Sequence record: MH445381.1
Source: Escherichia phage P1
Direction: 5' to 3' (one strand)
Length of the DNA: 64,000 nucleotides
Below are positions 29,940 through 31,972 of the stretch, piece by piece. The position numbers and the translations under genes are program-made. Under the pieces are notes generated by a model. It ran no database searches. It was given only the letters and a program-made list of their open reading frames with translations, and was not told the DNA's origin. Each line of letters starts with the position of its first letter. Position 1 is the first letter of the stretch.

Positions 29940-31954
29940 AAGAGCTGTGCTATGGATCTGTTTGCAGTGGAATTGAAGCCGCGAGTATTGCCTGGGAACC
30001 GTTGGGTATGCGTCCTGCGTGGTTTGCTGAAATCGAGTCTTTTCCATCTGCCGTTCTTGCGCACCGCTGGCCCCATGTCGCCAACCTTGGCGACATGACA
30101 AAACTTGCCAAAAAAGTCCTGGCTGGGGAAATCGAATCCCCTGATGTGCTCGTCGGGGGAACACCTTGTCAGGCATTCAGTATCGCGGGATTACGTGGTG
30201 GGCTTGATGATGAGCGTGGCGCGCTAACTTTAAAGTATGTGGAGCTTGCAAATGCAATTGACGACAAACGGGCTGAGTCATTTCTCAAACCAGCCGTTAT
30301 CGTCTGGGAAAATGTCCCAGGAGTCTTGTCATCGGCAGATAACGCCTTCGGATGTTTCCTTGCTGGATTGGCTGGAGAAGATGTGCCATTTGAACCAGGT
30401 GATCGACCTGAATCAGGAAAAAGCAACGCGTTCTGGCGGTGGGATGGCAAAACCGGTTGCCATGTTCCAAAGTGGCCGCAGTGTGGTTGTATTTATGGAC
30501 CGCAGCGAAAGGTGGCCTGGAGAATCCTTGATGCCCAATACTTCGGAGTGGCACAACGACGCCGACGCGTGTTTGTTGTCGCAAGTGCTCGAACAGACCT
30601 CGATCCCGCAACGGTACTTTTTGAGTTCGAAGGCGTGCGCCGGAATATTGCGCCGAGCAGAGGCGAGGGGAAGGAAACTACCAGATATACTTCAGACATC
30701 GCTATCAGATCTTGCGATGATACAAACATAGTTGCCATGGCACATGGGCAAGGAGGGGCTGAGATAAAAACCGATAATTCGGCACCAACTTTGACATGTA
30801 ACCATGAAGCACCAATTGTATTGCTCGGCGACGGTAGAATGCGCCGTCTTACCCCTGTCGAATGTGAAAGGCTGCAAGGTTTTCCTGATGGACATACATT
30901 GATCCCTACGGAAAAGCGTAAAAAAGTTTCTTCAGATGAACTGGCATACCTTCGCAAAAACTCTCCTGATTTGAACGAAGAAGAGGCCGCAATGCTTGCA
31001 GCTGACGGACCGCGTTACAAAGCGATCGGCAATAGTATGGCGATACCAGTAATGCGCTGGATTGGCGAGCGGATAACCAAGGCTGCATGTCGGCAGAATG
31101 AAGGGCGTGAAACAAAAGAGCGAAAAGTTAAACCAGCGGCAGAATTCGAACGGTCCATATTCAAATGGGCTGGTGGAAAATTTGGTGTTCTGGAACAAAT
31201 CTTTCGCTATTTGCCAGAAGGGAAGCGCCTGATTGAACCTTTCGTCGGTGGTGGAGCTGTCTTCATGAATGCCGGATACCAGGAAAATCTGCTAAATGAT
31301 GTGAATGCTGACCTGATTAACTTTTACAAGACTCTGCAACGCGAGGCGCATTCACTTATCACTCTGGCACATCGTTTCTTCCAGGACTACAACACCCAGG
31401 AGGGATTCCTGGCAGTACGGAATGCGTTTAACAAACAAGTCTATGATGATTTACATCGCGCAGCGGCGTTTTTGTTCCTGAACCGACATTGTTTTAACGG
31501 ATTGACGCGTTACAACCAGGCCGGTGAGTTCAATGTCGGTTATGGGAAGTATAAAACTCCGTATTTCCCATTACAGGAGATGGAAGCCTTCCTCGGTGCG
31601 GAAGGGCGGTCTGAGTTTGTATGCGGTGATTTTGCAGCGGTGATTGAAGCTGCCGGAGAAGGAGATGTCATCTTTTGCGATCCGCCGTATGAACCGCTTC
31701 CAAATACAGAGGGATTCACGAACTATTCCGGTCATGACTTTAAGTTTGAAGAGCAAAAACGCCTGGTGTCTCTGTTGACGGATGCTCATCGTCGAGGTGC
31801 AAAGGTTCTCATTACTAACAGTGGCGCGCCAAACATCAGAGAGCTTTATCATGACAGTGGCTTCAGAGTGGAACATCTTTTTGCCAGACGTTCTGTGTCT
31901 TGTAAGGGGGACACTCGAGGTGTAGCTCATGACGTTTTGGGTATATTGCTCTAA
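29936..31954 (+). CDS. dmt: bifunctional DNA methyltransferase (C5-cytosine N-terminal, Dam-like N6-adenine C-terminal)
   Basis: C5 motifs [12 protein letters not shown] and VIVWENVPG; Dam motifs FKWAGGK and FCDPPYEP. Confidence 0.9.
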
Positions 31955-31972
31955 TAAATTTATTAGTGTAAT
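31945..31972 (+). promoter_or_regulatory. overlapping divergent C1 operator pair (Op72a/b-like)
   Basis: Perfect ATTGCTCTAATAAATTT at 31945-31961 overlapping an inverted 15/17 copy at 31956-31972. Confidence 0.7.

Follow-up and report, generated by a model that had tools for sequence, protein, structure and literature searches.

The 64,000 nucleotides (nt) of Escherichia phage P1 analysed here (record MH445381.1; hereafter the window) carry a bipartite operator at the end of the dmt gene (31945-31972), in which two inverted sites of 17 base pairs (bp) for the C1 repressor lie over the hexamers of the promoter P1ban and of a second, predicted promoter, P2ban. We regard this reading of the site as Op72ab as very probably right (about 0.95). 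The identity with the P1 and P7 operator, the presence of c1 and the operator statistics were computed here, while C1 binding and the control of ban are taken from the literature and from annotation. The operator itself is a classic element of P1 immunity and nothing new, and shows that this phage-plasmid retains the P1 regulatory wiring. The main lead is not the operator but an unannotated RNA in the leader under its control, which resembles part of transfer-messenger RNA (tmRNA) and is predicted to be antisense to the tmRNA of the host.

The C1 operator pair and its promoters

Direct reading of 31945-31972 gives ATTGCTCTAATAAATTTATTAGTGTAAT, in which the two sites, Oban-a and Oban-b, overlap by 6 bp (31956-31961). 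The 17-bp asymmetric consensus of the C1 operator is ATTGCTCTAATAAATTT (PMC8546580). The sites, promoters and genes that bear on C1 control are as follows.

31945-31961, plus strand: C1 operator Oban-a (Op72a), a 17/17 match to the consensus, annotated in P1 at the identical position
31956-31972, minus strand: C1 operator Oban-b (Op72b), ATTACACTAATAAATTT, inverted, two mismatches (15/17)
31951-31966: perfect 16-bp palindrome CTAATAAATTTATTAG, made by the cores of both operators
31946-31974, plus strand: promoter P1ban, with −35 TTGCTC (31946-31951), a 17-bp spacer and −10 TAATAT (31969-31974); coordinates transferred from the P1 annotation
31929-31960, plus strand: predicted promoter P2ban, with −35 at 31929-31934 and −10 TAAATT at 31955-31960, overlapped by the operator; from the P1 annotation and alignment
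31952-31954, plus strand: dmt stop codon TAA, inside operator a; the dmt open reading frame (ORF) spans 29936-31954
28669-28685, plus strand: upstream operator Odmt (Op68), one mismatch
62965-63816, minus strand: c1 repressor gene, 283 amino acids (aa), its DNA 98-99% identical to c1 of P1, P7 and SJ46

In alignments the window is 100% identical to P1 (AF234172) over 31880-32150 and to MH422554 ('Punavirus P1', a P1-type phage-plasmid) over 31000-35500. The corresponding site in AF234172 (68667-68694) is labelled 'divalent C1-controlled operator Obanab; corresponds to former Op72ab; controls expression of ban', and because the two are base-for-base identical, sequence comparison identifies 31945-31972 as the already known Op72ab (Obanab). 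P7 has the same operator and the same next 50 bp downstream, with several variable positions in the dmt coding sequence just upstream, and its annotation of the identical site reads 'controls expression of trnRNA, ...'. The operator assignment is based on these GenBank annotations of P1 and P7. Among 5426 complete E. coli genomes, 466 have the 71-bp operator region, in 459 cases on plasmids.

Sites resembling the operator, with at most three mismatches, number 12 in the window against 0.26 expected, a count reached by none of 100 shuffles, and the perfect 17-mer consensus has an expectation of ∼1e-5 occurrences. Perfect 16-bp palindromes are seen once against 1.03 expected, and at least one appears in 73% of first-order Markov simulations. 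As the palindrome alone is at chance frequency, the signal is the operator motif and not its symmetry. Op72 is the sole overlapping inverted operator pair in the window. An operator-like pair is also present at 45805-45821 (plus strand) and 45854-45870 (minus strand), inverted, 33 bp apart and with three mismatches in each site; no named P1 operator was mapped to it.

The initial annotation of this DNA described a perfect palindromic double operator directly before a unit of transfer RNAs (tRNA-Asn/Thr), plp, tRNA-Ile and ban, with tight C1 control of the tRNAs and the helicase, and proposed a comparison with P1 Op72. Its interpretation of the site is correct by the comparison with P1, which shows the same bases as the annotated Obanab. 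Oban-a is indeed perfect and the 6-bp overlap does fall on the palindrome, but the two mismatches of Oban-b mean that the pair as a whole is not perfect. The tRNAs and ban do lie downstream, but the operator site is actually 656 bp upstream of tRNA-Asn (32628), and plp (32752-33129) is on the minus strand. C1 control of the tRNAs and ban was already part of the P1 and P7 annotation, and 'tight' has to be qualified by the hairpin downstream and a possible leak.

In the prophage state, C1 on the operator pair would shut out RNA polymerase, with the assistance of Lxc/Bof, a co-repressor that strengthens C1 binding through a ternary complex (PMC8546580). Bound C1 covers both promoter hexamers, so repression would take the form of promoter occlusion. 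C1 on Op72 probably also acts as a roadblock to read-through from the upstream promoter Pdmt, itself C1-controlled. In P1, Pdmt lies just downstream of Odmt (annotated at 65161-65190 of AF234172) and drives uhr-hrdC-dmt, ending inside Op72a. When C1 is inactivated, the promoter would fire rightward, and its transcript would include, in order, a dicF-locus-like RNA with a terminator-like hairpin, a tmRNA-like (tm-like) RNA, tRNA-Asn and tRNA-Thr, variable cargo, a tRNA with anticodon CAT, and ban. By this sequence order, the earliest RNAs from the Op72 promoter are non-coding elements, and the tRNAs come later. Attenuation at the hairpin (32135-32161) would end a large share of the transcripts ∼180 nt after their start. 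ban has been handled as a C1-controlled gene in quantitative reverse transcription PCR, where its induction is below that of ssb, dmt and kilA (PMC4713147), and the terminator-like hairpin would account for this modest induction. Since the hairpin lies 160-190 nt past the promoter, control of the tRNAs and the helicase would also depend on read-through.

A tm-like RNA in the leader

The leader between Op72 and the tRNAs (∼650 nt) is nearly unannotated in P1, where only a 'dicF-like region' is marked, and wholly unannotated in P7. Directly 3′ of the terminator-like hairpin it contains an unannotated tm-like element of ∼180 nt (32164-32341). The features of the leader, all on the plus strand, are listed below.

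32017-32111, plus strand: structured leader, with ∼78% identity to the Qin prophage segment that directly precedes mature dicF
32135-32161, plus strand: intrinsic-terminator-like hairpin GCCCATCTTCGGGTGGGC with a T7 tail (seven T), eight pairs, five of them G-C, in place of the DicF body
32164-32201, plus strand: 5′ domain of the tm-like element (38 nt), antisense to E. coli ssrA nt 67-107
32223-32255, plus strand: startless 10-codon tag ORF, GCA AAC GAT GAT CTG ATG ATG GTA GCG GCC TAA (ANDDLMMVAA, then stop)
32242-32269, plus strand: H5-like hairpin whose loop contains the stop codon of the tag, from alignment and covariation
32270-32304, plus strand: pseudoknot A, stem CGGGG/CCCCG (32270-74/32286-90), loop GTCG (32280-83) with CGAC (32301-04)
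32306-32341, plus strand: pseudoknot B, stem GCAGA/TCTGT (32306-10/32320-24), loop TCCCCG (32314-19) with CGGGGA (32336-41)
32346-32422, plus strand: long hairpin CAACAGGTAAGGGCGCTG ... CAGCGTCCTTTCCTGTTG, recognized by eye, with compensatory changes relative to other phages

The tag ORF is startless and exactly 10 codons long in 129/129 loci, beginning with GCA AAC GA. and ending with TAA or TAG, and its resume codon is preceded by UA at −5/−4, like that of E. coli tmRNA. The 129 loci contain 31 nucleotide versions and 17 peptides (ANDDLMMVAA, ANDDVVLMAA, ANEEMYLAVA and others). Entropy per codon position is 0.93 for the third, 0.63 for the first and 0.40 for the second, while the two other frames vary in length between loci. 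Judged by this pattern of variation, the tag is under coding constraint. The structure downstream of the tag was assessed in a plain MAFFT alignment of 40 diverse copies, in which 90.2% of cells are paired (versus 30-44% with the partners slid) and 19 of the 26 pairs are altered on both sides, values matched by none of 500 shuffles. With the Rfam model tmRNA_permuted, the window reaches 24.1 bits and other phages 27-33 bits, short of the gathering score of 47, and the element has no match to any Rfam family at gathering score. Our own covariance model of the element has a single hit in the window, at 73.6 bits (E = 3e-14), and also recovers the element in P1, P7 and D6.

BLAST detects the core of the element in ∼300 phage records of unrelated families. 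Carriers include P1-like phages, a lambdoid prophage, Drexlerviridae, the N4-like Bp4 and Ackermannviridae (Vi01, phiEa2809); the spread covers four or more families of tailed phages, together with P1-like and lambdoid prophages. Of 5426 E. coli genomes, 660 also have the stretch, labelled with nothing or as 'hypothetical protein', and >120 IMG/VR contigs with the conserved pattern were retrieved. The lambdoid prophage copy sits just after the late terminator downstream of Q, and T1-like phages have the element behind its own promoter (TTGACA-17-TAGATT, by eye). In 62 of the 129 loci tRNA genes follow 330-800 nt downstream, always on the same strand. In phage D6 (L133 1495-1714), the same terminator-like hairpin directly upstream, the tm-like RNA (79.9 bits) and tRNAs follow a pmgS-like gene and ∼700 bp of unrelated sequence, where a P1-type C1 operator was not found. 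Within Rfam 15, the tmRNA database paper (PMC11915505) and our literature searches, there is no description of such an element.

When reverse-complemented, the conserved blocks of the 5′ domain, GUUUUCG(UC)...GCGAC-UUUGCGG-N-UUUUU, correspond to host tmRNA. In RNAduplex predictions, the 5′ domain of 7/7 phage types pairs with one target, ssrA nt 67-107 (GUAAAAAGCCGCAAAAAAUAGUCGCAAACGACGAAAACUAC), at −33 to −40 kcal/mol, and the predicted duplex extends to nt 130 in phiEa2809 and Vi01. In the established tmRNA numbering, we take nt 67-107 to run from the 3′ strand of pseudoknot 1 through the pre-resume spacer and the resume codon into the first five codons of the tag. Smith-Waterman scores for the reverse complement are 24-40 (reached in 0/500 dinucleotide shuffles for the P1, lambdoid, T1-like and CS01 types), and those for the sense strand are at background. 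Pairing with host tmRNA is 9-18 kcal/mol better than pairing with the element's own downstream sequence, where the 'sites' vary by phage type. The ssrA target is almost invariant across Enterobacterales, and natural variants of the GCGAC block (GCGGC, GCGAU, GUGGC) mostly keep wobble pairing to it, as judged by eye. A fold of the 5′ domain resembling pseudoknot 1 (GUUUUC/GAAAC, CUUUG/CAAAG) was rejected, its covariation being little or inconsistent and the antisense pairing giving a better fit to the conserved blocks.

From these features we infer that the element joins an anti-tmRNA antisense to a surrogate messenger domain. On a minimal reading, the tm-like RNA may block host tagging; an indirect precedent is that anti-tmRNA antisense oligonucleotides block trans-translation by >95% in vitro (PMC7038980). 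More tentatively, and with the odds against it, the first long-lived product of the Op72 promoter might be a 'tmRNA hijacker', which both masks the host tag template and supplies a phage tag, making a bimolecular tmRNA. The 5′ 38 nt would pair with host tmRNA nt 67-107 and mask the tag template, so that the phage resume signal, 10-codon tag, stop-codon hairpin and two pseudoknots would emerge at the same point on the host molecule. The tag would come from the phage, and SmpB entry and the tRNA-like domain from the host. Such re-templating would jointly explain the absent tRNA-like domain, the coding-constrained startless ORF and the kept UA at −5/−4. C1 and Op72 would then put the re-programming of trans-translation, or at least its blockade, under lysis-lysogeny control in P1, and lambdoid, T1-like, N4-like and Vi01-like phages would use this module too, in most cases placed in front of their tRNA arrays. 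If the element is functional, phages of several families would alter ribosome rescue and protein tagging by an undescribed RNA-RNA mechanism; if this is true in P1, manipulation of ribosome rescue would be turned on when C1 is lost.

With default settings, ARAGORN finds no tRNA-like domain of tmRNA in the window or in the 129 homologous loci, and when the window was searched for a T-arm together with an acceptor strand able to pair with the 5′ domain, only the three tRNAs and chance hits emerged. At a 70% threshold, ARAGORN does report a 'permuted tmRNA' that has the correct tag, but nonsense tmRNAs are called by the hundreds as well, and this result was dropped as evidence. Two further candidates were rejected, namely the terminator hairpin as T-arm (its loop does not have the T-loop pattern) and the long A-A′ hairpin as helix 2 of tmRNA with a tRNA-like domain at its tip (the apical inserts of this hairpin are not conserved among phages).

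Some phages have tRNA-like sequences near the element. In phage Bp4 (L006 873-951), ARAGORN calls a 79-nt 'tRNA-Cys(ACA)' directly 3′ of it, which is not matched by the Rfam tRNA model and of which the tmRNA model recognizes the T-arm alone (15.5 bits). This sequence might be a tRNA-like partner of a non-canonical kind. In lambdoid and T1-like copies (L004 2795-2880; L008 978-1095), a tRNA-like arrangement is visible by eye past the long hairpin, consisting of UGUGGUG, a hairpin, ..., a GCCGGAGAUCAG..CCGGC hairpin and CACCACA, on which ARAGORN makes no call. P1 retains the last hairpin (of the GCCGGAGAUCAG..CCGGC type) at 32604-32621, six bases ahead of tRNA-Asn.

On the 5′ side of the tm-like element, the P1 record marks the 32017-32161 area only as 'dicF-like region', with no terminator annotated. 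The segment upstream of dicF in Qin occurs in 4268 of 5426 E. coli genomes. Comparison of the leader with the Qin dicF flank reveals compensatory differences in two helices, CUGGG/CCCAG against CGGGG/CCCCG and GUUGCCA/UGGCAAC against GUUGUCA/UGACAAC. The Rfam DicF model (RF00039) has no match in the window up to an E-value of 10 and scores 76.7 bits on Qin; DicF itself was thus rejected, homology being limited to the flank of the dicF locus.

On the 3′ side, the long hairpin is one example of a module, CACAACAGGUAAGAGCAUUG ... CAGUGCUCUUUCCGUUGUG, whose apical inserts vary. In many phages this module is seen again behind the tm-like element and behind tRNAs, and it occurs at many loci (e.g. 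L004 2408-2470 and 2664-2790). The 5′ arm of the module is found again after the CCA end of tRNA-Thr (window 32782-32800). Its G-U pairs and compensatory changes mark the long hairpin as a feature of the RNA, and it may be a stem at which phage tRNA arrays are processed.

Weighing the readings of Op72

Several points weigh against Op72ab as the controlling switch of the tRNAs and ban. The hexamers of P1ban, both inside or at the edge of the operator pair, match the sigma-70 consensus at just 7/12 positions, and a generic promoter scan of the window did not call this promoter; the miss follows from the 7/12 match and is not evidence against the promoter. The hairpin and its T7 tail would halt many transcripts, and control of the tRNAs and ban may be leakier or more conditional than 'tight'. 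ban may also have internal promoters. C1 binding and transcription are, for this isolate, taken over from the annotation of P1 and P7 and from the literature. Finally, phage D6 shows that the downstream module need not be paired with the operator, as it has these RNAs and tRNAs but no P1-type operator. In these comparisons, Op72/Pban appears as a P1/P7-specific switch set before a widely shared RNA module.

The pair might instead work mainly by stopping polymerases that arrive from Pdmt at the end of dmt, as a roadblock or in lieu of a terminator, and not chiefly as the operator of its own promoter. We consider this improbable. The dmt stop codon does lie inside operator a, with no terminator between dmt and the site; Pdmt/Op68 is upstream on the same strand, and the consensus match of P1ban is weak. 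However, Pdmt is itself C1-repressed, so there would be little to block in a lysogen, and the P1 record has P1ban as a sigma-70 promoter with both hexamers under the operators. The two roles can, moreover, coexist. Far less credible, to the point of being negligible, is a chance AT-rich palindrome or a site for another protein (e.g. a nucleoid protein) with no C1-specific role: although about one perfect 16-bp palindrome is expected per 64 kb, neither the rarity of the perfect 17-mer (∼1e-5 expected) nor the 12 related sites (0.26 expected) fits such an origin, nor does the identity with the annotated Op72ab of P1 and P7, and a C1 footprint on P1 Op72 has already been reported according to the record's annotation.

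The purpose of the Op72 promoter raises a different alternative, namely that it chiefly serves the non-coding RNAs (the dicF-locus-like and the anti-tmRNA/tm-like RNA), with ban and the tRNAs as secondary products of read-through. The initial 180 nt close with a strong hairpin and a T7 tail, and next comes the tm-like RNA, which is kept across phage families with strong covariation and a coding-type tag signature; the induction of ban below that of other C1-controlled genes points the same way. Against this, the genetics in the P1 and P7 annotation link Op72 to ban expression, and elsewhere the tm-like RNA has its own promoter or sits behind a late promoter. On balance this alternative seems rather unlikely, and Op72ab as a C1-repressed promoter-operator remains the preferred reading.

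Neighbouring genes and related systems

The genes following the leader begin with two tRNAs and end with the helicase gene.

32628-32781, plus strand: tRNA-Asn (GTT) and tRNA-Thr (TGT), by ARAGORN
32752-33129, minus strand: plp
34586-34661, plus strand: tRNA with anticodon CAT, Met according to ARAGORN and tRNA-Ile2 in the P1 annotation
34948-36312, plus strand: ban, a DnaB-like replicative helicase

Positions 33130-34558 of the window are without the P1 genes upl and tciABC and contain other genes instead. One, on the minus strand, is a 109-aa ORF of unknown function (phrog_7444); the other is an SPFH/'lipoprotein' gene of 275 aa (phrog_200), with ∼87% identical copies in Stx-converting phages. 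This replaced cargo also contains a sub-threshold Rfam match to the Salmonella small RNA STnc100 (33360-33480, plus strand; 37.8 bits against a gathering score of 47, E = 1.3e-5). The dmt product (672 aa) has the length of P7 dam, and is 82 aa shorter than P1 Dmt (754 aa). Elsewhere in the window, two matches are at the Rfam gathering score: a C4 antisense RNA with a1/b1 targets at 12123-12328 (immI region), and a sok antitoxin RNA of the hok/sok type at 15785-15959.

Compared with Op72ab of P1 and P7, the window site is the same in sequence, in position at the dmt 3′ end and in its inverted arrangement with a 6-bp overlap; the downstream tRNA-Asn, tRNA-Thr, tRNA(CAT) and ban are shared as well, and there is no difference in the site itself. 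The cargo between tRNA-Thr and tRNA(CAT) does differ, consisting of upl and tciABC in P1 and of the SPFH/lipoprotein-type gene and the ORF of unknown function in the window. The monovalent C1 operators of P1 (e.g. Odmt/Op68) have the same 17-bp asymmetric consensus and are likewise promoter-proximal, but are single sites, unlike the Op72 pair. The DicF locus of Qin shares its upstream segment with the window leader, whereas the DicF body of Qin is replaced in the window by the hairpin and T7 tail.

The tm-like element shares many features with tmRNA (SsrA, RF00023; in its one-piece, two-piece and phage-encoded forms), including a startless ORF with GCA AAC GA.., a hydrophobic-Ala-Ala end of the tag, UA at −5/−4, a hairpin loop that holds the stop codon, pseudoknots 3′ of the tag and sub-threshold Rfam hits. 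It differs in that no tRNA-like domain was found, and in its 5′ end, which is antisense to host tmRNA in place of an acceptor stem. tmRNAs are encoded in ∼2.3% of phage genomes (PMC9004378). In mycobacteriophage DS6A, a mini-tmRNA without a coding sequence, consisting only of the tRNA-like domain, was reported to interfere with endogenous tmRNA (PMC11915505). It is also a partial phage tmRNA, and the mirror image of the element described here, having the tRNA-like domain without a tag where the element has the tag and pseudoknots without a tRNA-like domain.

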